Shown here: one piece after another, positions 9,484 through 33,148 of the stretch | Position numbering within the stretch: position 1 is the stretch's first letter | Layout of the letters: each line of letters opens with the position of its first letter | Origin: Rhodospirillales bacterium | Lineage (GTDB): Bacteria; Pseudomonadota; Alphaproteobacteria; SP197 | DNA length: 64,000 nucleotides | Reading direction: 5' to 3' | Assembly (NCBI GenBank): GCA_014323865.1 | Contig: JACONG010000016.1 | Coordinates: forward strand, 544,523-608,522 | The notes under the pieces: generated by a model | The model's database searches: none | The model's input: the letters and a program-made list of their open reading frames with translations, nothing else | What the model was told of the DNA's origin: nothing | Position numbers and translations under genes: made by a program

Positions 9484-13115
<3,632 letters not shown>

Positions 13116-14415: not shown

Positions 14416-15816
14416 TTAGTTTTCCAGCATGCGTTCGAGAAGTTCCACATCCTCCGCGAAGGCGGGGTCACCGGCCATCAGTTCCTCCACCTTGCGCACC
14501 CCGTGCATGACCGTGGTGTGGTCCCGTCCGCCGAACTTCCGTCCAATCTCGGGCAGGCTGCGGCTGGTCAGGCGTTTGGCGAGATACATGGCGATCTGGC
14601 GCGGCCGGGCGATTGCCCGTTGCTTGCGGCTGGAGACCATATCGGCCATGCGAATGTTGAAGTGTTCGGCGACCTTCTTCTGGATTTCCTCGATCGTCAC
14701 GCGCCGGTCCTGGGCGCGCAGGAGGTCGCGCAGCAAATCCTGGGTGGAATCGAGCGTCACCGGCTGGCCGACCAGCTGCGCGTGCGCCAGAACACGGTTC
14801 AGGGCGCCTTCGAGCTCGCGGACATTCGAGGCGATTTTGTGCGCGAGGAACTCCATGACTCGCTGCGGCACGACCACGTCGGGGAACTGGGCGGCCTTGG
14901 TCTCCAAGATTCCCAGGCGTAGTTCGTAGTCGGCGGGATGGATGTCGGCCACGAGGCCCCAGCCCAGCCGACTCCGCAGGCGTTCCTCAATGCCGTCGAT
15001 GTCCGATGGCGAGCGGTCTCCGGAGATCACGACCTGGCGATTCTGATCGACCAGCGCGTTGAACGTGTGGAAGAACTCCTCCTGGGTTGAATCCTTGCCC
15101 GCGATGAACTGGATGTCGTCGATCATCAGCACGTCGACGGCGCGGAACTGATCCTTGAAAGCCATTGTGTCCTTGTAGCGAAGGGCACGGATGAACTTGT
15201 ACATGAATTTCTCGGCCGACATGTAGAGAACCCGCCGGCCCGGCTTCTTGGCCCGAATATGCCACGCGATCGCGTGCATTAGGTGGGTCTTGCCCAGGCC
15301 GACGCCGCCATAGAGGAAGAGTGGGTTGAAGGTGACCGAATCGGCTGCAGCGACACGCTGGGCCGCGGCATGGGCGAACTCGTTGGTCTTGCCGACGACG
15401 AAGTTTTCGAAGGTGAAGCGCGGATCGAGCAAAGCGGCAATCTTCTCGGCCTCGGCCACCGCATCAAGCATGTTGCCGTCATGGCGGATCATGTCGAGAT
15501 CGCGACGCACCGGCGTCACCTCCCGCCGCGGCGCACGGCGCTCAGGCCTGCCCACCTTGATGGTGATCCCACTGATGGCGTCGTTTTCACCGCACCACAG
15601 ATCGTGCAGGCGTTCGCCGCAGCGCGACATAACCCAGTCCTTCATGTTGCCGCTGGGCACACGCATGACGACCTCGTTGCCCGAGACTCCGTCAAGCGAA
15701 AGCGGGCGCAACCATGTCTTGAATGCTGCTTCGCCCAGTTCAGCGCGAAGGCGACCCCTGACCCGCTTCCACTGGTCTTCCACGTCCTGGTTGATCTTCA
15801 ACTGTTCAGACGCCAT
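14416..15816 (-). CDS. dnaA: Chromosomal replication initiator DnaA
   Basis: The AAA+ motifs GGVGLGKTHLMHAIA and the C-terminal HTH (RKFGGRDHTTVMHG) are present. Start chosen at MASEQLK, which has a GAGGAG RBS; the ORF extends to 15918. Confidence 0.95.
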   Translation of the reverse strand: MASEQLKINQDVEDQWKRVRGRLRAELGEAAFKTWLRPLSLDGVSGNEVVMRVPSGNMKDWVMSRCGERLHDLWCGENDAISGITIKVGRPERRAPRREVTPVRRDLDMIRHDGNMLDAVAEAEKIAALLDPRFTFENFVVGKTNEFAHAAAQRVAAADSVTFNPLFLYGGVGLGKTHLMHAIAWHIRAKKPGRRVLYMSAEKFMYKFIRALRYKDTMAFKDQFRAVDVLMIDDIQFIAGKDSTQEEFFHTFNALVDQNRQVVISGDRSPSDIDGIEERLRSRLGWGLVADIHPADYELRLGILETKAAQFPDVVVPQRVMEFLAHKIASNVRELEGALNRVLAHAQLVGQPVTLDSTQDLLRDLLRAQDRRVTIEEIQKKVAEHFNIRMADMVSSRKQRAIARPRQIAMYLAKRLTSRSLPEIGRKFGGRDHTTVMHGVRKVEELMAGDPAFAEDVELLERMLEN

Positions 15817-15919
15817 CAACGATCTCCTCGAAACGCCGCGCATGGGGGCTGCAGGCAGGGCAGCCGCTTGGCAGGCGGGCCTCATGCTGCACATGCGACC
15901 GGCGGTGTAAGCGTGCATT

Positions 15920-16385
15920 AACGACGGGCAGAGGCTTCTCGATTGAGGGGTGCGAAGACACCACGCCGCCAGTCAGTCGATATAAATTGCTGTTCATTTT
16001 CAACCCTTTAACCGCAAACTTCTACTCCACCACAGTCCCGTTTTTTGCGTGCGACAGGTTGCGAATGACCACCACTGTGTCCGAAGCTGAGCGCAACCTA
16101 CAATATTGCCGCGACTGCACGAGTCGTGGCCAGAGAAGGATTGGCGTCACTGCTTGTCGCCCCACCGGAACTATTATTCTTGAGGTCATCCCCGCGACCT
16201 TAATGAACCATAGAGCAAGGCCCTCGACGGAAACAACTGGATTAAAACAAGAACATCGATCGACGCAGCCACAATACATCTATAGATTGTATAAGTGAAT
16301 CATATGACAAAACAAGAAACGCGCCGGACCATTCGGTCCGACGCGTTGTCATCACAGGATCATGTGCAGCCCGCAGGACGTCCGA
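15920..16385. promoter_or_regulatory. AT-rich 466-bp non-coding region upstream of dnaA (dnaA promoter, candidate oriC)
   Basis: GC content drops sharply; there is an A/T tract at about 16250–16320 (…acaatacatctatagattgtataagtgaatcatatgac…). No perfect TTATCCACA box was seen by eye. Confidence 0.4.
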
Positions 16386-16646
16386 CTACATCTTGGCGAT
16401 ACGTTGCACCAGACGGGACACCTTTCGCGACGCGGCGTTCTTGTGCATCACGCCGGTCTTGGCGCCGCGCATGATCTCGGGTTGCGCCGAACGCAGCGCC
16501 TGGGTCGCGGCTTCCTTGTCGCCCTTGGCGATCGCTTCTTCGACCGAGCGCATGTAGCTGCGCACACGGCTCATACGGCTGCGATTAATGGCGGTTCGCC
16601 GGGCGGTTTGGCGCACGCGCTTCTTGGCTTGCATCGAGTTGGCCAT
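16386..16646 (-). CDS. rpsT: 30S ribosomal protein S20
   Basis: [33 protein letters not shown] is the canonical S20 sequence. Confidence 0.95.
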
Positions 16647-18561: not shown

Positions 18562-20221
18562 GTGCGTCCGGCCACGCTGAATCTGTTGCAGACCGCGCGC
18601 AATCTGGCGTGGCTTCTTGCGATCGCGCGAACGCTGGTGCGCTATAACGTCTCCTCCCGCTCCAACTCGCAGGCGTCGCACCCCCGGTGATGTGGGCCGC
18701 CAAGATGGTGTCGTCGCACAGTGCCGAAGGGCGTCCGGGACAACGTCTGGCTCGTGCTCTTCAGGAGCTCGGCCACAGTTTCGTGAAGTTCGTGAAGGTA
18801 GACCAGTTGCTTTCGGTGCGGCCCGATCTTGTCGGCCAGGAGATCGTTGCCGATCTCCAGACCCTGCAGGATGGCCTGACACCGTTCCCGGCCGAGGAGG
18901 CTCGGGCGACCATTGAACGCGAGCTGGAACGGCCGCTCGACGAGCTGTTCGAGAGCTTCGACAGCACGCCGGTTGCTACCGCCTCGACCGCACAGGTCCA
19001 CCGCGCGGTGACCTCGGACGGCCGCACGGTGGCGGTCAAGGTGCTACAGCCGCGCATCGCCGAGATCCTCGTTTGCTTACCAGCGCCCGGAGTTGCGAGA
19101 AAGGTGTCTGAGATGCTCCGGCAAGTCCTGTAGTGTCTCGATAGAGGGCCACATGAGAAGTATAACATCACGGCCGTTGCAAGCGCGACGACGACACCAA
19201 CCGCACGACAAAGCACCTCGCTGTCGTCGGTTCGCGGTGCCCAAACCAAGATGCATAACGCTACGCCGAGTGCCCGCCATAAACGGCGAGTATGCCAAAC
19301 AGTGCACCTAGAACATTGATTGCTGAGACCAACATTTTAGTTACTCCCTAGTTGTTCGGATAAGAGGGCTGCCACCAATGGTGCAATCCCAAACCCCGAT
19401 AGTTTCCGATGGAACATCAACTGGAGACATCACGGCGGCGAACAAGGTGGTCGCGAGCGAAGCGACATGGGCCTCGCACACTGGCTCGCTGACGTTATGG
19501 AGCACGCCCGGCCCGGCCTCAAGAGGCTCAAGCCGGTTCAGGTGGTCGAGACGCTGCGGAAGTGAGGCGACGTCGAACTCGACTTCAGGCCCGGTGTCGC
19601 TCACAGAGAACATGGCCGACGCTCCCGGCTTCCGCGTGCCCGAGATCGACTGGCAGCTCACCGGCGAACATGTGCTGAACCTGGAGTGGGTCAAAGGCAT
19701 CCCCGTCGATGAGCGCGAGTCGCTGCAGGCTAGCTGCAGGCTATGTGCCCCCCGGGACCGCAGCCGCGAGCTCTTCACCCAAGCATGCCGCTCGATCGGT
19801 GAGCCGATCCTAGGCCGGCCGCTCAACAAGATCTCGATCGCCCGACTTCTGGCCCAGCTTCTGCTCTTGCAGAAGACCATGCGGATCAATGAGGGCATCG
19901 GCCGTGCGCTGGCGTTCGCTCTCAAAATGTGGCGCTATCCCAGCCGCTGATCGAGAACTGTGCCGTGCGCGATCTCTCGCCGCCGGCATGGGCCTACGAT
20001 GCGGCACAGTCGGCGCGGCGACGCTGCGCCGCCTGCCGGAGCTGGCCCAGAAGGTCGAGGACATCACTGACGAGACCTCGGCCTCGGGGTTTCGTCTGCA
20101 CACCGACACGGTCGACGACCTGGCGCGCCGCCTTGCGGAAATCGGCAGCCGGGCGACCACCGCGCTCTGGGCTGCGGCATGGCTTGCCCTTCTGGTCGCA
20201 GCCATCGCACTCATCGTCTGA
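18562..20221 (+). pseudogene. ubiB: ubiB (AarF/ABC1 kinase-like ubiquinone biosynthesis protein) disrupted by frameshifts and an internal insertion
   Basis: UbiB-like segments fall in different frames: 18562 (LLQTARNLAWLLAIARTLVRY), 18687 (…FVKFVKVDQLLSVRPDLVG…AVKVLQPRI), 19478 (LADVMEHARPGLKRLKPVQVVETLRK), 19606 (FRVPEIDWQLTGEHVLNLEWVKGIPV), and 19889 (C-terminal TM region). The total span of about 1.66 kb equals the normal ubiB length plus an insert of roughly 350 bp. Confidence 0.7.
19261..19335 (-). CDS. Candidate 24-aa hydrophobic peptide ORF (MLVSAINVLGALFGILAVYGGHSA) inside the low-GC insert in ubiB
   Basis: ATG preceded by AGGGAG at the proper spacing; a single predicted TM helix; located in a segment of about 48% GC. 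Confidence 0.2.
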   Translation of the reverse strand: MLVSAINVLGALFGILAVYGGHSA

Positions 20222-20390: not shown

Positions 20391-22612
<2,222 letters not shown>

Positions 22613-22693
22613 ATCAAGAGTGGACTTTGTACGATTCCGTGAAAGATTAACGGCGCTGTCCTATATTGTGCAGTGCACAACAGGGTGAAACCG

Positions 22694-23899
22694 ATGCTCG
22701 ACGGCAAGCACGTCCTTCTCGTCATCTCCGGCGGCATCGCCGCATACAAGACGCCAGACCTTGTCCGGCAACTGACCAACCGGGGCGCTGGCGTTCGCTG
22801 CGTGATGACCGAAGGCGCCCAAGAGTTCGTGACACCGCTGACGTTGTCGGCTCTGACCGGCGACAAGGTCTTCACCGAGCTCTTCTCGCTCACCGACGAG
22901 GCGAAGATGAGCCATATACCGTTGAGCCGGGAGGCTGACATCGTCGTCGTGGCGCCGGCCACGGCCAATCTGATAGCGCGCATGGCGGCGGGTCTCGCCG
23001 ACGATCTGGTGACCACCGTTCTGCTGGCGACCGACAAGCCTGTCCTGATGGCGCCTGCCATGAACACGATGATGTGGAACCACGCTGCGACCCGGCGCAA
23101 TGCCGCACGGCTGGTCAGCGACGGGATTGCCATGGTCGGCCCGGAGGCGGGCGATCTCGCCTGCGGCGAGGTCGGCTCGGGCCGCATGAGCCAGCCCGTT
23201 GACATCGTCACGGCGATCGAGGCCACCTTGGCCGATGACGGCGCCCGGCCGCTTGCGGGTCACCATGCTCTGATCACCAGCGGACCGACCCACGAGCCGA
23301 TCGATCCCGTGCGCTACATCGCCAACCGCAGTTCGGGCAAGCAGGGCCACGCCATTGCTGCCGCCTGCGCCCGCCTCGGTGCACGTGTGACGCTGGTGTC
23401 GGGACCGGCCGCCCTCGACGATCCGGCCGGTGTCGATGTTGTCCGCGTCGAGACTGCGCGCGACATGCTCGGAGCCTGTGAGGCTGCGCTGCCCGCCGAC
23501 GTCGCCGTCTGCGCTGCCGCCGTGGCCGACTGGCGTGTCGCCCAGCCCGCCGACAGCAAGATGAAGAAGAACGGCGGCGCGCTGCCCACGCTCGCCTTAG
23601 CCGAGAACCCCGACATCCTTGCCGTGCTCGCCGGCCGCAACGACGGCCGCCCGCGGCTCGTCGTCGGGTTCGCTGCCGAGACCGGCGATGTCGTGACCTA
23701 CGCCCAGGGCAAGCTTGCGTCGAAGGGCTGCGACTGGATCGTCGCCAACGATGTCAGCGAAGGCACGGGCACCTTCGGCGGTGATGACAACACGGTCCAT
23801 CTCGTGACCTCGGCGGGCGTCGAGGACTGGCCGTGCATGTCGAAGCCCGCGGTCGCCGAACGGCTCGCCCGCTCGATCGCTGCCCACCTCGCCGCATGA
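22694..23899 (+). CDS. coaBC: Bifunctional phosphopantothenoylcysteine decarboxylase/phosphopantothenate-cysteine ligase
   Basis: [23 protein letters not shown] (flavoprotein domain) plus a C-terminal CoaB domain; the protein is 402 aa. Confidence 0.9.
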
Positions 23900-24345
23900 G
23901 TTTGAGGGTCCGGCTGATTCGGCTTGATCACGGGGCGGAGCTTGATCTGCCCGCCTATGCCACACCAGGCTCGGCCGGGGTCGACCTGCGCGCGGCGACC
24001 GATGACACCACGACGATCGAACCGGGTGACCACGCCATAGTCCCGACCGGCCTCGCGCTTGCGCTGCCCCAGGGTTACGAGGCCCAGATCCGGCCACGCT
24101 CGGGTCTGGCCGCCAGACATGCCGTGACCGTGCTCAACAGCCCCGGTACGGTCGACAGCGACTACCGTGGCGAGGTCAAGGTGCTGCTGATCAACCACGG
24201 CTACGAACCCTTCACCTTCGAGCGTGGTGAACGCATTGCCCAGATGGTCATCGCGCCGGTCGTCCAGGTGACGTTCGACAAGGTCGACACGCTCGATGAA
24301 ACCGCACGCGGTGCGGGCGGCCACGGCTCGACCGGCAGAGACTAG
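23896..24345 (+). CDS. dut: dUTP diphosphatase
   Basis: GSAGVDLRA…RSGLAARH…DSDYRGEV are the dUTPase motifs. There is an ATGA overlap with coaBC. Confidence 0.9.
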
Positions 24346-24354
24346 GAGACACCC

Positions 24355-24672
24355 ATGCTCGCGCTGCGGCCCAACTGCCAATACTGCGACAAGGACATGC
24401 CGCCCGACGTTCCTGATGCCATGATCTGCACCTAACCAGTCACCTTCTGCGCGGACTGCATCGAGGCGCATCTTCACAACGTCTGCCCGAACTGCGGCGG
24501 CCGTTTCGCGCTTTGCCCGACGATGGCGCCGCGCGAGGGCGTGTCGCTCCGGCATCAGCCGGCTTCGACCGAGCGTGTGCACCTCGGATATCCGAAGGAT
24601 GACATCGCCGCCTTCACTGCGCCCACCGGCACGTCCCGCCAGCCGAGCGTTGAGCGCGGCTTGCAAGGGTGA
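24355..24672 (+). pseudogene. DUF1272-family Cys-rich small protein gene with an in-frame TAA at 24433–24435
   Basis: MLALRPNCQYCDKDMPPDVPDAMICT-[TAA]-PVTFCADCIEAHLHNVCPNCGG… The stop replaces a residue between conserved Cys pairs. Confidence 0.5.
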
Positions 24673-24696
24673 TCCCGCCTGCCCACCTTTGGCAGC

Positions 24697-25521
24697 ATGG
24701 ACATCACCGACTTTACCGAAGAGCAGCTTCACCGCTACGCACGCCATATCGTCATGCCCGAGGTTGGCGGCGAGGGGCAGGTCAAGCTGCTCAATGCGAA
24801 GGTGCTGGTCGTGGGCGCCGGAGGCTTAGGCGCGCCACTCGTCATGTATCTCGCGGCAGCTGGTGTCGGCACGATAGGGATCGTCGACAATGACGTCGTC
24901 GAACCCTCGAACCTGCAGCGCCAGATCGCCCACACCAACGACCGAATCGGCATGCCCAAGACCGAAAGCGCCGAGACGACGATCAAGGCTCTGAACCCCG
25001 ACATCACCGTGATACGGCATCAGGAGCGTATCGAGCACCACAACGCACTCGAGATCATCGCGGGATACGATCTGGTCTGCGATGGCACCGACAACTTCCC
25101 CACGCGCTACCTGATCAACGATGCCTGCTATCTCGCGAGGAAGCTGCTGGTCAGTGCGGCGATGATGCGCTTCGACGGCCAGCTCACCACGTTCCGCGCT
25201 CACGAGGGCGACGAGAACCCCTGCTACCGCTGCCTCTTTCCGGAGGTACCGCCAGAGGGCCTGGTGCCGTCGTGCTCGGAAGCCGGCATCTTCGGCGCCA
25301 TCGCCGGGGTCATGGGCACGCTGCAGACGGCCGAGGTGCTCAAGGAGTTGATAGGCCTCGGCGAGAGCCTGGTCGGCACGCTGCTCATTTATGACGCGCT
25401 GGGCGCGGAGTTCCGCCGCGTAAAGTACGGCAAGGACCCCGACTGTGCGCTCTGCGGCAGCCGGGCCACCATCACCAACCTCTCTGGCCACGCCCAACAC
25501 GCCCGGAGGATGCAATCGTGA
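24697..25521 (+). CDS. moeB: Molybdopterin-synthase adenylyltransferase (ThiF/MoeB E1-like)
   Basis: Nucleotide-binding motif VLVVGAGGLGAPL, the catalytic Cys region, and two CxxC pairs (CYRC…CALCG). Confidence 0.85.
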   Translation: MDITDFTEEQLHRYARHIVMPEVGGEGQVKLLNAKVLVVGAGGLGAPLVMYLAAAGVGTIGIVDNDVVEPSNLQRQIAHTNDRIGMPKTESAETTIKALNPDITVIRHQERIEHHNALEIIAGYDLVCDGTDNFPTRYLINDACYLARKLLVSAAMMRFDGQLTTFRAHEGDENPCYRCLFPEVPPEGLVPSCSEAGIFGAIAGVMGTLQTAEVLKELIGLGESLVGTLLIYDALGAEFRRVKYGKDPDCALCGSRATITNLSGHAQHARRMQS

Positions 25522-25651
25522 GACTCCACAAATCTCGATTTCCGTCATGCCCCGGCTTGACCGGAGCATCCATCATCCGATTTGGCGGATCGCGATGGCG
25601 GACGATGGATCGCGCCATCAGGTGGGGGCGATGACGGTGGGAGAGTGGTCC

Positions 25652-26047
25652 ATGTCTGATCCCGCGCCCCTCGGTGTCGTCGTGCTTTCGGGTGCCTATG
25701 AACGGGTGCACTACGCGCTGATGATGGCCTCGGCCGCGGCGGCCATCGACCGGCCGGTGACGGTGTTTGTCACGATGGATGCGGTGCCGCTTCTGGTGAA
25801 GGACGAGGGCTGGCGGACCCTGATGGGATCGGAACGCGACGACGCGCTGAAGGCGGGCAACGTGGCCGATATCGAAACCCTGCTCGAGGCCTGTGCGGCG
25901 ATGGATGTCAGCTTCATGGTCTGTGAGGCCGGTTTGAAGGTCGAGGACACGCCGGCCGAGGCCATGCGCGACGATCTCGGCGTCGAGGTGACGGGGCTCG
26001 TCACGTTCTATGGCGCTGTCGGATCGGGCCGGATCGTCACGCTCTGA
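25652..26047 (+). CDS. DsrE/DsrF-like (YchN-like) family small protein
   Basis: A 131-aa protein with a GGGAGAG RBS. The pattern PLGVVVLSGAYERVHYALMMASAAAAIDRPVTVFVTMDAV has the alternating β/α hydrophobicity typical of the DsrE fold. Confidence 0.6.
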   Translation: MSDPAPLGVVVLSGAYERVHYALMMASAAAAIDRPVTVFVTMDAVPLLVKDEGWRTLMGSERDDALKAGNVADIETLLEACAAMDVSFMVCEAGLKVEDTPAEAMRDDLGVEVTGLVTFYGAVGSGRIVTL

Positions 26048-26147
26048 GCTTGATCTTCGGGTCGGATTTCATCACCGTATCACCGCCGTCCGGAACCACG
26101 GCGCTTCGCTCAAAGGGCCGCTTTCTCTCACCTTTGGAGAACGGACT

Positions 26148-27155
26148 ATGACGCAGAACTTCCCTACGCTTGAACCGGTCGAGCTCGCAGCCCTGTTCCA
26201 TGGTGATGCTGAGTCGCAGCGTGCCTGCGGCGAGGCCCTGCTGGCGGCCTTCCAATCGGCTAACGGGTTCGTCGTGACGGGCTTCCCGACCTCGGCATTG
26301 GTGGACGGGCAGGTCAACGACACTCTCGCCTTCTTCGATCTCGACGATCCCGAGCGACTGGCCCTTGCGACCCGGTGGCACCGCGATGATGCAACGCATT
26401 GCTACCGCGGCTACTTCCCGCTGCCGAAGGAGCGCGGCTGGGCGCACAACGAAATCTTCGACTTCGGCCCCGCCGTGATCTCCCGCGCGCCCGACGGCCA
26501 TCCGGTGAAGCGGTTTCTGGAAGAAGGCAACCAGTGGCCTGCGCGCGAACCGCATGACGGCTGGCGCGAGGGATCCGAGGCGCTCTTCGCTGACCTCCAC
26601 AAGCTGGCCCATGTGGTCATGGCTGCGCTGACCGATGCGCTCGACGATGACGCCGCGACCACGATGGACAAGTTCGGCGACGGCAACGGCACGCTCCGAG
26701 CCCTGCACTACCCGCCGCCGCCCGAGGGCTTCATCGCCTGCCACAAGGAAACACTGCCCGAGCGGGTCGATGCGGCCGGCCGGCGAATCATCACCCATCG
26801 TCACATTGATGCATGCGTGCTGTCGGTCCTCTGGCAGGACGCGGTCGGTGGGCTGCAGTACGAGAGCCGCGACGGCACCTGGTACGAGGTGCCCGCGGGC
26901 TGCGGGCGTCTCTCCATCCACGCCGGACGCGCGATGGAGCTGATGACCGGCGGGCGCATCAAGGGCACACCGCACCGGGTGGTCGGTGTCGGACAGGATC
27001 GTTGCTCGATGGGCTTTTTCCTGGAGCCCGACTTCGGCGCCGTGATCGGACGCGACGATGATGGAAACCCGATCACCTATGCCGACCACATGAAGGACGA
27101 TTTCGCCGATCTCGAGGTCTATGCCGATGTCATGGGCGACGCGGTCGCGGCCTGA
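26148..27155 (+). CDS. 2OG-Fe(II) oxygenase superfamily protein (isopenicillin-N-synthase-like)
   Basis: An N-terminal DIOX_N-like region, then a candidate Fe-binding triad: HxD in THRHIDACVLSVLWQD, followed by the distal His in GTPHRVV. RBS GGAGAA. Confidence 0.8.
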   Translation: MTQNFPTLEPVELAALFHGDAESQRACGEALLAAFQSANGFVVTGFPTSALVDGQVNDTLAFFDLDDPERLALATRWHRDDATHCYRGYFPLPKERGWAHNEIFDFGPAVISRAPDGHPVKRFLEEGNQWPAREPHDGWREGSEALFADLHKLAHVVMAALTDALDDDAATTMDKFGDGNGTLRALHYPPPPEGFIACHKETLPERVDAAGRRIITHRHIDACVLSVLWQDAVGGLQYESRDGTWYEVPAGCGRLSIHAGRAMELMTGGRIKGTPHRVVGVGQDRCSMGFFLEPDFGAVIGRDDDGNPITYADHMKDDFADLEVYADVMGDAVAA

Positions 27156-27326
27156 CCGGACATCGTCCAGAAGGCTCTTGACCCGGGTGCACTTCGTTCG
27201 CACATTTTGCCTGCCGGCTAATAACACGGCGTTTCGCAAACAAGGGCTATCTTTCGCCACCCAAGGGGATCGGCGGATTGTGGCGCTTGCGCCGGGTCCG
27301 CCCTCCCCGACGACGGAGGAACGGAC

Positions 27327-28334
27327 ATGCAAGCGCACTTTGAGAACGTCACCACCATTGATATCGCCGCGTTGTTCGACGACACCTCGGCCGTTCGACC
27401 CGCGATTGCAGTCGAGGTCGCGCGGGCCCTTGCCGAGCATGGCGCGTTTCTCGCTACGGGCTTTCCCGGCGGCGACGACATCGACAGGCGTATGGAGAAA
27501 CTGCTCGCCTTCTTCACCCTGAATCGCGCCGGCAAGATGAGCTGTGCCACGCGGCGCGACGATCCCGCCAGTCCCAATGTCAACCGCGGCTACATCGCGC
27601 CGCCCGAGGACAAAGGCTGGGCCTACAACGAGTTCTTCGACATCGGCCCCGACCCTGTGCCGTCGGTGCCGTCCGGCCTGCCTGCACGCGAGCTGCTCGA
27701 AGAGCCGACCCGCTGGCCGACGACAGAGCCCTATTCCGGTTGGGTCACCGAGTCGCGCGCGCTGTTCAACGATATGGTCGGCCTGTGCCGTGGTGTGCTG
27801 GGTGGCATGATGGAAGGTCTCGGTCTCGATCCTTCGCCGGCGTTGGCGCTGTGCGAAGGCAACAACGCCACCCTGCGGCTGCTGAACTATCCGGAAGTAC
27901 CCGACCATTTCGTGGCCGGCGAGGGCGAGGTCGTGCCTGAGCAGTTCGACGAACTGGGTCGTCGTATCCTGACCCAGCGCCATCTCGACATGAACCTTGC
28001 CTCGCTGCTGTGGCAGGACCCCGTGGGCGGGCTGCAGATGCAGGCGCCCGACGGCATCTGGCGCGAGGTACCTGTCGATCAGGGCGGTATCTCGGTGCAC
28101 AACGGCGTCATGATCGACCGCCTGACCGGTGGTCGGGTGCCGGGCACACCACACCGCGTGGCCGGACCCACGGGCAACCGCCGCTCGGTCGGCATGTTCC
28201 ACGAGCCCGATTTCTCGGCCCTGATGGACTCCGAAGAAAGCCGCCCGCCCGAGGTCTATGCCCGTCAGCTGCTGCGCCGCTACAAGGCCTACCCCGACAT
28301 GGCCCCCTTCATCCCCGACGAGATGGCTGCATGA
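27327..28334 (+). CDS. 2OG-Fe(II) oxygenase superfamily protein, paralog of 26148..27155
   Basis: Same architecture as the upstream paralog (TQRHLDMNLASLLWQD … GTPHRVA) and the same RBS context (GGAGGAACGGACATG). Confidence 0.8.
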   Translation: MQAHFENVTTIDIAALFDDTSAVRPAIAVEVARALAEHGAFLATGFPGGDDIDRRMEKLLAFFTLNRAGKMSCATRRDDPASPNVNRGYIAPPEDKGWAYNEFFDIGPDPVPSVPSGLPARELLEEPTRWPTTEPYSGWVTESRALFNDMVGLCRGVLGGMMEGLGLDPSPALALCEGNNATLRLLNYPEVPDHFVAGEGEVVPEQFDELGRRILTQRHLDMNLASLLWQDPVGGLQMQAPDGIWREVPVDQGGISVHNGVMIDRLTGGRVPGTPHRVAGPTGNRRSVGMFHEPDFSALMDSEESRPPEVYARQLLRRYKAYPDMAPFIPDEMAA

Positions 28335-28657
28335 CGATGACGTACCATGACACCACAATCCTCGACATCGCCCCGCTCTTCTCGAGCGGCGGCACCGCCT
28401 CGCTCGACCGGCAGATCGCCGAGGTGCTCGAAACCGAAGCGAGCTTCGTCGCCACGGGGTTCCCCGGCTGCGAGGGGCACGACAAGCGCGTCTCCGATGT
28501 TCTGCGCTTCTTCGACATGCCGCTCAAGGCGAAGATGACCTGCACTGTCCAGCAGCACCACGCGGCCCACAGCAACATCTATCGCGGCTGTCTGCTATCG
28601 TTGTTCCGCGACAGCAGGGCCATCGGCGTCGTTGCGATGGCGGCCGAAGCCGCCTGA
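28331..28657 (+). pseudogene. Truncated third 2OG-Fe(II) oxygenase paralog (N-terminal about 95 aa only)
   Basis: Its ATG overlaps the previous TGA (ATGA). MTMTYHDTTILDIAPLF…FVATGFPGCEGHDKRV parallels the N-termini of the two paralogs, then diverges after NIYRG and stops. The next gene starts at 28671. Confidence 0.55.
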
Positions 28658-28670
28658 GGCCGTGGCCGCG

Positions 28671-29291
28671 ATGAGTCTGGACGATGTCCTCCGCGACCTG
28701 AACGCGCTGCCCCGGAAGGCCGACGGCACCGTCTACGTGTCCGCGTTCAAGCCGCTTGCGCGGCGCCATCGCAACGACCATGCGCTCGCCTTGGCCCTGT
28801 GGGACACCGGCACGGATGTTGCGCGCCAGCTCGCCGTCCGCATCGCCGATCCCAGCCTGGCCGATGACCGCCTGCTTGAGACCTGGGTTAACGACCTGGA
28901 CGAATGGAGTCTGACGGATGCCTTCACGGCCCATGTCGTCAGGCCGTCGGCACTGGCGATCGAGAAATCCCATGCCTGGGCGCAGGCCGAACCGACCTTC
29001 GTGCGCCGGGCCGGGTTCGCGACCGTGGCGCAGTTGGCTTGGCTGCGGACAAGCGCGACCGAGGACATGGTTTTCCTCGCCTTTCTTCCCCGGATCGAAG
29101 CCGCCGCCACCGATGAGCGCTTCTATGTGAAGAAGGCCGTCAACTGGGCGTTGCGCGACATCGCCAAACGCAACGATGCGCTGTGTGAGCACGCCACGGC
29201 GCTTGCCATGTGCCTTATGGCCTCCGACGACACGACCGCCCGCTGGGTCGGGCGGCACCGCTGCAAGGAGTTCCTCGTCGATCCCGCTTAG
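28671..29291 (+). CDS. DNA alkylation repair enzyme family protein (AlkD/HEAT-like)
   Basis: …ALALALWDTG…FVRRAGFATVAQLAWL…ERFYVKKAVNWALRDIAKR matches the DNA_alkylation family pattern. Confidence 0.75.
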   Translation: MSLDDVLRDLNALPRKADGTVYVSAFKPLARRHRNDHALALALWDTGTDVARQLAVRIADPSLADDRLLETWVNDLDEWSLTDAFTAHVVRPSALAIEKSHAWAQAEPTFVRRAGFATVAQLAWLRTSATEDMVFLAFLPRIEAAATDERFYVKKAVNWALRDIAKRNDALCEHATALAMCLMASDDTTARWVGRHRCKEFLVDPA

Positions 29292-29775
29292 AAGAAGACG
29301 AACGAGACCGAGATTGTCGATAGCCTGCCGCAGATCGGGACGCCGAAGGTCGACCGCATCTGTCTGGCCGAACGCGACAACCAGGCTCTCGACCGCCGAA
29401 AGGCCGAAGACGCTGATGATTCCGATGCGCCTGACGGCTTACCCAACGATCTCAGCCGTCACATTGCCGCTGCGCCGTGCAAGGTGTTGGAGCGCGACGC
29501 GGCCTCGCCGCAAGCCCCTACATCGACGTAGGTGGCGATTTGCTGTCCGCACCGGTCTCTGCAATCCACATCGAGAAGGTGTTCGGTATGGTGCTCGATC
29601 CCGCCGATCTGCTCGACGACATTCCATTGGCCGAGATCGTTGAGGCGATCGCCGAGTCGGCACGATCCGGCCCATGACGATCAAGCTTGGTCTTTTCCCG
29701 CAGCTTTTCGTTGATTGTACACTCATTCAACAACCTGTCCCGCAGGAGGTGCGGCGATGAACGAGATCCGCACGA

Positions 29776-30964
29776 TTGACACGGAAAAACCCCTTTGCCG
29801 CCGTCGATGATTTGGTACGCCAAGGCATGGAGGCGCCGGTTGCCGATGCCAGGGGCCTGCCCAATGAAGCCTTCACCGATCCCGTGTTCCTGGAGCTCGA
29901 ACGCAAGCACCTGTTTGCACGAAGCTGGGTCTTCGCCTGCCCGCAGAGCGACGTTCCGAATCCGGGCGACGTGAAATGTCTCGAGGTTGCGGGGCGTCAT
30001 CTCTTCATGACCCGCGACCGCAAGGGTGCCGTCAGGATTTTCTTCAACGTCTGCTCCCATCGCGGCGCCAGGCTTGTGATCGAGGACCAGACGAAAGCCA
30101 CCGTCCTGACCTGCCCTACCACGATTGGTCCTTCGGGCTGGACGGCACGCTGCGCGGACGGCCGCACTATCACGCCCCGCTGGAGCATGACACCGTCGGC
30201 AGCAAAGCTGATCGCGACTGCCTCTTCGAGGTGCGCCCGGCAATCTGGCACGGCTGGGTCTTCGTCAACATCGACGGTCAGGCGCAACCGTTCGAGGACT
30301 ACATGGCGCCCGCCATGAAGGCCTATGTGGACTGGGACCTTGGCGCGCTCAAGCTGGTGCACTACCAGCCCTTCGACTTCCACGCGGCTTGGAAGCTCGT
30401 GATCGAGACCTTCTGCGACACCTACCACGTCTTTATGGTGGCATCCCGATCTTCATGCCGCGCAGACGCCGGCCGACTGTTTCACGATGCGGCCCGATAG
30501 TGCGCACATGTTCAACCACATCGTCATCGGCGCCGAAGGCGGTGGTCTGACGCCGGTTGAGGAACAACTTCTACCGGATATCCCGGGCGTCTCCGCCGAT
30601 CAGGAGTCGCTCTCACCCTTCTGCAACATCTTCCCCAACGTCACGATGGCGCTGTTCCGTTCGGCCGTGACCTTACTTCCAATACGAGCCGGTCGCCGTC
30701 GACAAGACCATCATGCGTGTCTGGTTCTACGTTGCGCCCGAAACCGCCGAGGACGAGGCCTACGCGCTGGGCCGCGAGGAGCTCTATGCCAATTGGGTAC
30801 AGCTCAACGCCGACGGTGCCGGGATCTGCCACCGTCTGCAGGAAGGCCCCAGCTGTGACGCCTACGACGGCGGCAGCTTCGTTCCCTACTGGGACGAGGG
30901 CAGGCTGCACTTTCACCGCCAGATCGCGGATGCGCTGCGCGGGGAAGGGTTGTTTGTGCGGTGA
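29776..30964 (+). pseudogene. Rieske non-heme iron oxygenase alpha subunit, at least 3 frameshifts
   Basis: The first Rieske motif CSHRG (CxH) is in frame A and the second, CPYHDW, only in frame C. The frame change is in a C-run (tgccctacc). The catalytic-domain pieces (ETFCDTYHVFMV…, then YFQYEPVAVDKTIMRVWFYVAPE…GEGLFVR) are in two further frames. Confidence 0.65.
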
Positions 30965-31020
30965 GACTGTTGCCGGGCTCGTGAGCCTTCAAAACGCGGT
31001 GACGGTACGCGCCTGGGAAA

Positions 31021-31067
31021 ACAAACAAAAAAGGCCGCCCCGGACATCCGGGGACGGCTTTGGATTT
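31021..31067. terminator. Bidirectional rho-independent terminator between the convergent Rieske pseudogene and ghrA-like gene
   Basis: AAACAAACAAAAAAG-GCCGCCCCGGA-cat-CCGGGGACGGC-TTTGGATTT. Confidence 0.6.
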
Positions 31068-31082
31068 CAGATCTTCGCGACA

Positions 31083-32072
31083 TCAGAGAAGCGTATCGAT
31101 CACCCGATCCGGCGGTTTGTGCCCGTCGGCGTAGGTCTTGATGTTGATGATGACCTTTTCGCCCATGTCGAGGCGGCCCTCGATCGTGGCCGAGCCCATG
31201 TGGGGCAGGAGCACGACGTTCTGAAGCGCCAGCAGCTTGGGGTTCACGGCGGGCTCATGTTCGAAGACGTCGAGGCCGGCGCCGGCGATCTCGTTGTCCC
31301 GGAGCATCCGTGTCAGCGCCGCCTCGTCGATGACCTCGCCGCGTGAGGTGTTCACGACCATCGCGTTTTTCTTCAGAAGCTTCAGGCGGCGGGCCGAGAG
31401 CAGGTGGAAGGTGGCGGGCGTGTGCGGGCAGTTGACCGAGATGATGTCCATGCGGGCGAGCATCTGGTCGAGGCTCTCCCAGTAGGTCGCCTCAAGCTCC
31501 TGCTCGGTGTCGTCGGGCAGCTGCCGGCGGTTGTGGTAGTGGATCGAGAGGCCGAAGCCACGCGCCCGGCGCGCCACGGCTGAGCCGATTCGGCCCATAC
31601 CGATTATGCCGAGCCGTTTGCCCCAGAGACGATGGCCCAGCATGTGGGTCGGGCTCCAGCCCGACCAGTCGCCTGAACGGATCAGGCGCTCGCCTTGGCT
31701 GACCCGGCGGATCACGTCGAGGATCAGCGCCATGGTCATGTCGGCGGTGTCCTCGGTCAGGACGCCCGGCGTGTTGGTCACGGTGATGCCGCGCTCGCGG
31801 GCCGCGGCGAGATCGATATGGTCGACGCCGGTACCGAAGTTCGCGACCAGTCGGAGATTCTCGCCAGCCTGGGCCAGAATACCCTTATCGATGCGGTCGG
31901 TCAGGGTGGGGACCAGGACGTCAGCTGTCTTGACTGCTTCGACCAGTTCGTCCCGACCCATCGGGTGATCATCGTCGTTGAGCCGGGTATCGAATAGCTC
32001 CATCATTCGTGTTTCAATGACGTCGGGCAGCTTTCTGGTTACAATGACAGTGGATTTTTTGGCTTGGGCCAT
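31083..32072 (-). CDS. D-isomer-specific 2-hydroxyacid dehydrogenase (glyoxylate/hydroxypyruvate reductase-like)
   Basis: The NAD-binding motif GIIGMGRIGSAVARRA and the catalytic R/E/H context (…NTSRGEVIDEAAL…LDVFEHEP). Start chosen at MAQAKKSTVIV. Confidence 0.85.
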   Translation of the reverse strand: MAQAKKSTVIVTRKLPDVIETRMMELFDTRLNDDDHPMGRDELVEAVKTADVLVPTLTDRIDKGILAQAGENLRLVANFGTGVDHIDLAAARERGITVTNTPGVLTEDTADMTMALILDVIRRVSQGERLIRSGDWSGWSPTHMLGHRLWGKRLGIIGMGRIGSAVARRARGFGLSIHYHNRRQLPDDTEQELEATYWESLDQMLARMDIISVNCPHTPATFHLLSARRLKLLKKNAMVVNTSRGEVIDEAALTRMLRDNEIAGAGLDVFEHEPAVNPKLLALQNVVLLPHMGSATIEGRLDMGEKVIINIKTYADGHKPPDRVIDTLL

Positions 32073-32175
32073 GCGTTTGCTGATTGCCTTGCTGCGAGGG
32101 AGGCCCGGGAGCTTCGGGCGCAGGGTCTTTAGCAAACACGATCACACGAAACAACGCAACGCGGCCTCCTTCCGG

Positions 32176-32649
32176 ATGCATGGCACGATTGCGCTTTTTC
32201 TCGTCGTGCTGATCGGGTGCGAAGCGGCCCAGGACCCGCTGCCTCTGCCCCGATTCGTGTCGCTCAAGGAAGACAAGGTCTTCATGCGCGCGGGCCCCGG
32301 CACGACCTACCCGATCAACTGGGTCTTCGTGCGCGAAGGCATGCCGATCGAGATCCTCCGTGAATATGAGGAATGGCGTTACGTGCGCGACCACGATGGC
32401 GTCGAAGGCTGGATGCACCGGATTATGCTGTCAGGCTCGCGCTCGGTGATCGTTGCGAGCCAGGTGGTGGCGACTGCCTACGACACGCCGAGGCGCGACG
32501 GCGCGCCGGTGTTCCGCGCGGACCCCGGGGTCCAGGGGGGGCTGATCTCGTGTGACGGCTCATGGTGCCGGATCGAGATCGGCGACGTGAAGGGCTGGAT
32601 GCTGATGGACGATCTCTGGGGTGTCTACCCGGAGGACGGGCAGGGCTGA
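32176..32649 (+). CDS. Secreted SH3b-domain protein
   Basis: A signal peptide (MHGTIALFLVVLIGCEA) followed by two SH3-like repeats (…VSLKEDKVFMRAGPGTTYPINWVFVREGMPIEIL… and …VFRADPGVQGGLISCDGSWCRIE…). Confidence 0.7.
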   Translation: MHGTIALFLVVLIGCEAAQDPLPLPRFVSLKEDKVFMRAGPGTTYPINWVFVREGMPIEILREYEEWRYVRDHDGVEGWMHRIMLSGSRSVIVASQVVATAYDTPRRDGAPVFRADPGVQGGLISCDGSWCRIEIGDVKGWMLMDDLWGVYPEDGQG

Positions 32650-32960
32650 TGGGGTTCACTCCCGGGGAGCGTCGGCTTGTCCCCGATCATGTCGGACGCC
32701 TTCTCGGCCATCATGATGACGGGAGTGTTCAGATTGGCCGAGACGATCGAGGGGATGATCGACGCGTCAACCACGCGCAGGCCTGTGACGCCATGAACAC
32801 GGTAGGCCGGATCAATCACCGCATCGGGACTCTGACACATGCGGCAGGCACCCGCGGGGTGATAGCCGCTCTCGGCATATCGCTGGACCCAAGCGTCGAC
32901 CTCGGCGTCCGTCCTGACATCGGGGCCCGGGGTCAGCTCGCGCCCGCGAACTGGTGTATG
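32625..32960 (-). pseudogene. C-terminal about 110-aa fragment of a GMC-family oxidoreductase (choline dehydrogenase-like)
   Basis: …SGYHPAGACRMCQSPDAVIDPAYRVHGVTGLRVVDASIIPSIVSANLNTPVIMMAEKASDMI is the GMC C-terminal signature. The coding sequence stops abruptly at the repeat-rich junction (about 32960). Confidence 0.65.
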
Positions 32961-32970
32961 TGGGGGGCGG

Positions 32971-33148
32971 GAAGTCTTTGGGAATCGTGACTATGCGTGA
33001 TGAGGCGTGACTATGCGTGATGGATCAAGGGGTTAGGGGTGGATTCGGGGTTGCTGAAAAGTCTTTCAGAATCGTCCGTTGAAACGGCCTTGCAGGGTCG
33101 TTTTCCGGGCGTTTTCTAGGGTCTGGAACGCCGGGATTTTCCGGGCGT
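32971..33148. repeat. Repeat-rich junction: tandem 19–20-bp repeat (CGTGACTATGCGTGATG ×2), direct repeats of TTTTCCGGGCGTTTT, and an imperfect repeat of GAAGTCTTTGGGAATCGT
   Basis: Seen directly at 32986–33022, 33092–33108/33130–33144, and 32971–32991/33056–33070. Confidence 0.5.

Follow-up and report, generated by a model that had tools for sequence, protein, structure and literature searches.

Whether genes that lie side by side also act together is the question raised by positions 24355–29291 of a 64,000-nucleotide (nt) stretch of DNA from a Rhodospirillales bacterium (GenBank assembly GCA_014323865.1, contig JACONG010000016.1), the whole of which is referred to as the window. The interval contains genes for a MoeB-type E1-like adenylyltransferase (moeB), a small DsrE-like protein (dsrE), two Fe(II)/2-oxoglutarate (2OG) oxygenases and the remnant of a third (Ox1, Ox2, and Ox3), and a protein of the PF08713 'DNA_alkylation' family, all preceded by a DUF1272 gene. 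The original prediction, made from the sequence alone, read this row as one undescribed pathway, in which sulfur transfer by the E1-like enzyme and the DsrE-like protein is combined with oxidative tailoring of a small molecule or, alternatively, the oxygenases repair alkylated bases. Pfam searches recovered every gene family that it had named, in place. We found the pairing of moeB and dsrE to be real and conserved, with translational coupling in most cases; no other part of the interval behaves as a conserved unit. We consider it probable that four unrelated layers make up the interval, namely a moeB–dsrE module, separate oxygenases, an arrived PF08713 gene, and dead genes.

About 40 related loci were compared overall, all from Alphaproteobacteria (Rhodospirillales-like metagenome-assembled genomes, Rhodospirillum, Acetobacteraceae, and Gluconobacter). 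A degenerate-pattern scan based on an alignment of the DsrE-like protein, with one genome per GTDB species, supplied 32 loci, of which 31 are full-length and underlie the counts given below. The window proteins were mapped onto the loci by tblastn. The alignment of 23 DsrE-like sequences has no stretch conserved enough for a pattern scan, and 14 closer sequences gave a working pattern; the loci are therefore biased to relatives with at least ~38% DsrE identity. The DsrE-like protein has no tblastn match on plasmids.

The moeB–dsrE pair

The moeB gene (24697–25521, + strand) encodes a 274-residue protein whose sole Pfam match is ThiF (PF00899, E 7e-79, 264.7 bits) at residues 14–250. The protein scores 303.3 bits with the NCBIfam MoeB subfamily model NF004281, above the cut-off of 266 bits, and stays below the cut-offs of the NCBIfam equivalog models TIGR02355, PRK08762, and MoeZ. 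Its best NCBIfam model is PRK08762, which is matched at model positions 120–382 of 387 only, and the MoeZ and PRK07411 models align over their first ~260 positions only. Like MoeB, MOCS3, and MoeZ, the protein has a full ThiF adenylation domain and a Zn-binding CxxC pair; the motifs GAGGLG, CYRC and CALC (the two CxxC), and SCSEAG are present. No rhodanese domain was found in it. Hence, in contrast to MOCS3 and MoeZ, the window MoeB has no fused rhodanese domain and is followed instead by a separate gene for a DsrE-fold protein, whose codons usually overlap those of moeB. Orthologues of MoeB, 60–85% identical, are encoded in 18 of the 31 loci.

The dsrE gene (25652–26047, + strand) encodes 131 residues, which match PF02635 (E 1e-8, 35.8 bits against a cut-off of 22.7) and PF13686. 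An AlphaFold2 (AF2) model built from the 23-sequence alignment has a mean predicted local distance difference test score (pLDDT) of 96.6, and Foldseek matches it with probability 1.00 to 3pnx, 2qs7, 3mc3, YchN (1jx7), and DsrEFH (2hy5_B). All 23 homologues have Cys91 (within VCEAGL), and in 2qs7, 3pnx, and 3mc3 the family cysteine occupies the aligned position. In characterised DsrE proteins this family cysteine is the sulfur-binding residue (PMC11094781). The window protein thus shares its fold and one conserved cysteine at the strand-to-helix junction (PMC11094781) with the DsrE-family carriers, which include TusD/DsrE of TusBCD/DsrEFH, DsrE2/DsrE3 with TusA, and YchN. It differs from them in being encoded by a lone gene near which TusA, DsrC, dsr, and hdr genes are lacking, in having the uncharacterised 2qs7 and 3pnx as its nearest structures, and in being partnered by moeB or, within one clade, by two 2OG oxygenases. 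An identity as DsrE2 was ruled out, the protein reaching 31.1 bits with the DsrE2 model NF047629 against an equivalog cut-off of 210. A full-library HMM search at E<=1e-10 returned 358 representative clusters (50% identity) of this DsrE-like subgroup; nearly all of the 150 matches listed are stand-alone DsrE-like proteins of 100–170 residues.

We then inspected how far the pairing extends. In 18 of the 31 loci, moeB lies directly 5' of the DsrE-like gene, and the same adjacency is found in L036. The pair spans 38–77% DsrE identity, with Rhodopila, Acetobacteraceae, a Rhodospirillum sp., and Gluconobacter morbifer at 38–46%. The end of moeB and a candidate start of dsrE share 4, 8, or 11 nt at 14 of the 19 loci measured. 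In Rhodospirillum rubrum (L040 and L041, 5431–8489) the overlapping pair is preceded by a gene for an Rrf2-family regulator and by cysK; the PALP protein encoded by the latter scores as CysK, not CysM (TIGR01139, 445 bits against a cut-off of 351). These two upstream genes lend the R. rubrum neighbourhood a sulfur-assimilation theme. A 9-Mb genome carries the pair in a wholly different context, lytB-APH-thiF-dsrE. Furthermore, the partial metagenomic protein P0212 (270 residues) joins a ThiF C-terminal region (profile positions 144–237) and a DsrE-like domain in one open reading frame (ORF). P0212 represents a natural fusion of a rare kind or else a frameshift artefact, and is consistent with functional pairing.

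The co-conservation on which the original prediction had proposed to be judged is thus found for moeB and dsrE and is not found for the other genes. The sulfur-transfer reading of this adjacency was a reasonable one, and moeB–dsrE is probably a sulfur-activation module. A MoaD/ThiS-type carrier whose gene lies elsewhere would be adenylated by MoeB at its C-terminal glycine. The DsrE-fold protein would bear a persulfide on Cys91 and pass the sulfur to the acyl-adenylate to give a thiocarboxylate, thereby taking the place of the fused rhodanese domain of MOCS3/MoeZ-type enzymes. While the gene pairing, the DsrE fold, and the conserved cysteine are features of the genes and their products, sulfur transfer to a MoeB-bound carrier adenylate is what we infer from them. 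Thiocarboxylate-dependent biosynthetic clusters are known, such as CysO-CysM-MoeZ and the QbsCDE system of thioquinolobactin. An E1-like enzyme is common to these clusters and to the pair, and in R. rubrum cysK stands directly 5' of the pair; unlike in those clusters, neither a ubiquitin-like carrier gene nor a JAMM protease was seen here in the Pfam-annotated +/-10 kb. We found no published account of a DsrE-like/MoeB pairing in the open-access literature, which is weak evidence of absence.

The oxygenases and their leader

Downstream of dsrE lie Ox1 (26148–27155, + strand; PF03171, E 4e-14, above the cut-off) and Ox2 (27327–28334, + strand; PF03171 and PF14226), both full-length members of the isopenicillin N synthase (IPNS) family, as had been predicted. 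With them, all families proposed for a profile check (PF03171/PF14226, PF02635, and PF00899) are accounted for. Ox1 and Ox2 share 37% identity. The residues of the HxD...H triad and of RxS, namely His219, Asp221, His276, Arg285, and Ser287, do not vary in two alignments (11 and 24 sequences) that include both proteins, and the two are predicted to be catalytically intact Fe(II)/2OG oxygenases. The AF2 model of Ox2 has a pLDDT of 92.8, and its nearest structures are IPNS, the ethylene-forming enzyme (EFE), and thymine-7-hydroxylase (T7H), with TM scores of 0.7–0.8 at 20–27% identity. Structural and sequence searches place IPNS, EFE, T7H, ACCO, and plant DOXC enzymes at the top. No AlkB structure is among the 50 Ox2-model matches listed, nor is an AlkB entry among the sequence matches listed, and no NCBIfam model matches the oxygenases. 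Thus, the Ox proteins have the DIOX_N and 2OG-FeII_Oxy domains, the HxD...H and RxS motifs, and the predicted fold (TM 0.7–0.8) of IPNS, EFE, and T7H, whereas their identity to any solved structure is only 20–27%.

In a neighbour-joining tree, the 24 oxygenases taken from the loci form three groups. In L001, L005, and L006 the first oxygenase belongs with Ox1 to clade A and the second to clade B, to which the sole oxygenase of many other loci also belongs; Ox2 stands apart from both clades. Orthologues of Ox1 in L001, L005, and L006 are 53–62% identical, and those of Ox2 (P0075–P0080; L036) are 64–70% identical. Ox3 (28331–28657, + strand; 108 residues) has no Pfam match and was recognised by BLASTP, its residues 1–86 matching Ox2 at 33% (E 5e-16) and Ox1 at 30%. 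It is a decayed clade-B orthologue, 63% identical to the OxB of L006 over residues 1–86. Ox1, Ox2, and Ox3 belong to distinct old orthologous groups. The predicted tandem paralogs are diverged, as had been noted, and are not the products of a recent tandem duplication, since each oxygenase has its own orthologues elsewhere. The third gene had been described as truncated. Its C-terminal loss is real (the last ~185 residues are missing, with no further remnant in the window), and there is more to its decay than truncation: an in-frame internal deletion of ~53 residues follows YRG, after which a tail of 21 residues aligns with the L006 orthologue (LLSLFRDSRAIGVVAMAAEAA versus LLSLFREERAIGVAVMAAAA) before the stop. 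ATGA stop/start overlaps had been seen between these genes, and one exists between Ox2 and Ox3 (28331–28334); the other junctions are spacers of 100–171 nt, with 100 nt between dsrE and Ox1 and 171 nt between Ox1 and Ox2.

The occupancy of the site 3' of dsrE varies widely. The number of oxygenase copies there is 0, 1, 2, or 2 plus a remnant, even at 69–77% DsrE identity; L003, L021–25, L027–31, and R. rubrum have none. No oxygenase is found within 10 kb in 11 of the 31 DsrE-like loci, and one more has only a remnant. In different genomes the slot holds genes for PhyH, a methyltransferase, an adenylate cyclase-TPR protein, or a Rieske oxygenase. Distant oxygenase homologues (39–43% identity) lack a DsrE or ThiF neighbour in all three contexts inspected.

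Alignment of the regions upstream of Ox1 and Ox2 brought out a shared element. The similar ribosome-binding site (RBS) contexts noted in the original prediction (GGAGAACGGACTATG and GGAGGAACGGACATG) are real, and they are the 3' end of this longer conserved leader. The short form before Ox1 (26085–26147, + strand), located by alignment of the upstream regions and by pattern search, has the core GCCGTCCGGAACCACGGCGCTTCGCTCAAAGGGC, with a −35-like TTGATC at 26050–26055. Before Ox2, a promoter-like site and a long-form leader were delineated by alignment and pairing analysis (27178–27326, + strand). The site consists of TTGACC (27178–83), a 17-nt spacer, and a −10-like CACATT (27201–06). The leader has its core at 27213–27247, followed by a stem-loop and by a hairpin (27296–27326) that pairs with the GGAG Shine-Dalgarno sequence (GUCCGCCCUCC...GGAGGAACGGAC). 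The core GCCGGCUGGCAACACGGCGUUUCGCAAACAAGGGCCA is nearly invariant, its conservation being far above that of the downstream proteins, and it reads across loci as AACACGGCGYTTCGC..AAGGGCC. Two copies of the core pattern are present in the window; shuffling the window 100 times gave an expected count of 0.00. The element is also found before the first oxygenase of L001 (10444–10563), L005 (1466–1531), L006 (~10440–10555), and L036 (9886–10000), and before an oxygenase remnant in L008 (~10445–10560). In five long-form sequences, 87.6% of the cells of the proposed pairing are paired, against 40–54% in slid controls, and compensatory changes occur at four pairs; this covariation is suggestive of a structured leader.

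Rfam 15 has no match at E<=1 on either strand of 22000–32500, and a known riboswitch was ruled out as the identity of the leader. A metagenome scan with the core added just two loci, near-duplicates of L001 and L005, and the motif was not found upstream of the distant oxygenase homologues or of the relocated Ox2 orthologue L039. In a consensus promoter/terminator scan the counts were not above shuffled expectation, and TTGACC-17-CACATT fell below the scan threshold. The leader is a candidate clade-restricted cis-regulatory element, which may be a structured RNA or an operator. Since promoter-like and leader signals precede the oxygenases themselves, their transcription is probably independent of moeB–dsrE. 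Ox1 and Ox2 would each be transcribed from its own promoter-like site, behind an RBS-sequestering leader, and would occupy a plastic slot 3' of dsrE, where relatives have 0 to 3 such genes and other oxygenase types. The two enzymes most likely hydroxylate a small molecule under metabolite-responsive or protein-mediated control, and would act outside the MoeB reaction.

The PF08713 gene and the decayed genes

The last gene of the interval (28671–29291, + strand) encodes HEAT-like repeats and matches PF08713 with E 1e-18 (68.3 bits against a cut-off of 21), so the family assignment in the original prediction is borne out. All 31 related loci lack the gene at this site. The closest homologues, 61–64% identical, lie in unrelated neighbourhoods; a 46% homologue is found elsewhere in the L023 genome, and the family is a very large one, a search for it returning 2262 matches at E<=1e-10. 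The only DNA-related sequence matches in the PDB are to AlkF (1t06 and 3zbo; E 7e-4), over ~100 residues, and AlkD structures are not among the PDB sequence matches at E<=0.01. AlkF has no base-excision activity (PMC4433238). The window protein has Pfam PF08713 in common with AlkD, AlkC, AlkD2, AlkF, and AlkG, and differs from the AlkD group in that its DNA-related matches are limited to AlkF, not a glycosylase, and in that its gene is not co-conserved with the interval. It is a lineage-specific chance neighbour. The gene would be an independent arrival that came with the deletion that destroyed Ox3.

At the other end of the interval, the DUF1272 gene (24355–24672, + strand) belongs to the predicted family (PF06906, E 1.4e-20 on the read-through translation) and is a pseudogene. 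It has an in-frame TAA at 24433–24435 (codon 27), and a conserved cysteine is lost (ICT*PVTFC, where six orthologues have ICSYECTFC). Intact orthologues of 102 residues are found in L001, L002, L004, L007, and L036. DUF1272 seems dispensable in this clade. In L006 (8811–8840) the gene is also disrupted, by an early stop after MLDLRPNCEF, and the copy in L008 (8610–8897) has a duplicated FCADC motif.

Decay extends beyond the interval. The katG gene (20397–22557, − strand) has at least three frameshifts and two in-frame stops, its L036 orthologue being intact with 697 residues. UbiB is normally required for ubiquinone synthesis; here, ubiB (18651–20152, + strand) is broken over all three frames with residues ~260–347 missing, and the L036 protein is intact with 518 residues. 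A gene for a Rieske ring-hydroxylating oxygenase (29776–30961, + strand) is split across three frames, and only the C-terminal 109 residues are left of a GMC oxidoreductase (32646–32972, − strand). At least six genes have thus decayed in ~15 kb (katG, ubiB, DUF1272, Ox3, Rieske, and GMC), all intact in L036 or L008, and coaBC, dut, moeB, dsrE, Ox1, Ox2, and ghrA stand intact beside them. Sequencing error was rejected as the cause, since there are several large deletions (Ox3, UbiB, and GMC) as well as nonsense codons, with adjacent genes intact. The six decayed genes suggest relaxed selection, for example in a host-restricted lifestyle. Ox3, being one of at least six decayed genes, is a symptom of general decay, not a pathway feature; DUF1272 and Ox3 are both dead genes within a wider decay of the genome.

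The setting of the interval is otherwise ordinary in composition. An ORF listing and a reading of 24300–29400 gave nine co-directional features on the + strand, starting with coaBC (22673–23899) and dut (23896–24345), which were identified by Pfam, form the left flank of the syntenic block, and lie upstream of moeB in the compared loci, and ending with the PF08713 gene. The GC content is flat at 0.64–0.67, and so composition shows no sign of a foreign island. The gene order is fpg-ubiE-ubiB-katG-coaBC-dut-DUF1272-moeB-dsrE ... ghrA(−)-SH3, and the same order was found again in relatives. With dnaA and rpsT at ~14416–16646 (− strand), ~9 kb upstream of the interval, the locus is probably near the chromosomal replication origin.

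Readings of the interval and their meaning

Several observations weigh against reading moeB–dsrE as a module that works apart from the oxygenases. The most telling concerns 13 genomes of one clade (L009–L020 and L026), where no moeB lies within 10 kb of the DsrE-like gene. There, the gene begins 1–10 nt after a gene for a TauD-family oxygenase and ends 20–30 nt before a clade-B IPNS-like oxygenase gene, so the DsrE-like protein is kept without moeB adjacency and is co-transcribed with oxygenases. Given so tight an operon, this DsrE subgroup may be functionally tied to Fe/2OG oxygenases. Some link is also possible in view of the 18 of 31 loci that have an oxygenase within 300 nt downstream of dsrE. 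In the window itself, a 130-nt spacer separates moeB from dsrE where the genes overlap in most of the loci measured. A MoaD/ThiS-type gene was not identified in the window, although no search was aimed at one, and a cysteine desulfurase gene is not present in the Pfam-annotated +/-10 kb. Moreover, the loci were gathered from the DsrE-like gene, and the moeB counts are therefore shares of DsrE-like loci.

The TauD-DsrE-oxygenase trio also occurs in L034 (8965–11360), with IS66 and Tn5-type transposase genes upstream. A decayed second copy, consisting of gene fragments only, lies at 9716–10432 of L032, on the L018 contig and ~18 kb away. The TauD-family protein has only weak BBOX/TMLH/TmpA-like matches; for this reason an organosulfur scavenging island, suggested by the TauD neighbour and by cysK in R. 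rubrum, was rejected. With insertion sequence (IS) elements upstream and the ancestral right flank ghrA-SH3 retained, a rearrangement that parted moeB from dsrE is the simplest history of the operon.

The original idea of one pathway, in which a thiocarboxylate or persulfide made by MoeB and DsrE is built into a small molecule and then tailored by the 2OG oxygenases, appears rather unlikely. It draws on the 18 loci with an oxygenase close behind dsrE, on the 13 operons with gaps of 1–30 nt, and on the common strand of all genes. The 13 operons belong to one clade with the same ghrA-SH3 right flank, however, and count as about one independent observation. The separate promoter-like site and leader of the oxygenases argue against a single unit, as do their 0–3 copies at 69–77% DsrE identity, their absence within 10 kb from 11 of the 31 loci, and their distant homologues, which have no DsrE or ThiF neighbours in three of three cases. 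Nor does the Pfam-annotated +/-10 kb contain a gene for a sulfur carrier, a JAMM protease, a nonribosomal peptide synthetase or polyketide synthase, or any other scaffold-forming enzyme. The cluster as a whole is thus not the pathway that had been supposed.

The DsrE-like protein could instead mainly serve the Fe/2OG oxygenases, for instance if a sulfur-containing substrate or product were delivered, trapped, or protected by it, the adjacency to moeB being inherited synteny. The trio that persists without moeB, the decayed second trio in one genome (L032), and the fact that DsrE adjoins an oxygenase in both types of arrangement would fit this alternative. We nevertheless judge it decidedly unlikely, because the overlapping moeB–dsrE pair persists without any oxygenase and in a non-syntenic context, a ThiF–DsrE fusion ORF exists, and the TauD-family protein, with its weak matches, carries no sulfonate-cleaving signature.

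A very unlikely explanation is that all adjacency is fortuitous, that of moeB and dsrE included, and was kept by shared ancestry alone. Most loci do share the flanks coaBC-dut on the left and ghrA-SH3 on the right, as this would require, but the stop/start overlaps are kept across family-level divergence, and the pair survives both the move to the lytB-APH context and, in R. rubrum, the insertion of Rrf2-cysK between coaBC and moeB. Finally, nucleobase repair by AlkB-like 2OG oxygenases beside an AlkD-type glycosylase, to which the PF08713 match and the presence of T7H among the remote structural relatives of Ox2 might point, is hardly credible, given that the PF08713 gene is missing from the site in all 31 loci and the neighbourhoods of its closest homologues are unrelated, that its only DNA-related PDB matches are to AlkF (E 7e-4), which lacks base-excision activity (PMC4433238), and that the oxygenases are of the DIOX_N/IPNS type, with no AlkB among the 50 matches listed.

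The composite reading, with a moeB–dsrE module as its one conserved part, removes a false lead. Since neither the oxygenases nor the 'alkylation repair' gene belongs to the module, work on an E1-DsrE-oxygenase-AlkD pathway would be misdirected. For the module, the meaning lies in the supply of sulfur to MoaD. The route of this sulfur varies among organisms: Escherichia coli uses IscS, TusA, and YnjE, and eukaryotes and many bacteria have a rhodanese domain fused to the E1-like enzyme. To our knowledge, the sulfur donor has not been established in alphaproteobacteria with a rhodanese-less MoeB. The coupled DsrE-fold partner is a concrete candidate for this donor, testable in the genetically tractable R. 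rubrum. We tentatively put forward a bolder proposal, which we would sooner doubt than believe: this DsrE subgroup may be a dedicated persulfide donor for the rhodanese-less MoeB of Rhodospirillales and Acetobacterales and, separately, the leader may be a new metabolite-sensing RNA that controls orphan IPNS-like oxygenases. If this is true, the step of MoaD sulfuration in these bacteria would be assigned to the DsrE subgroup.

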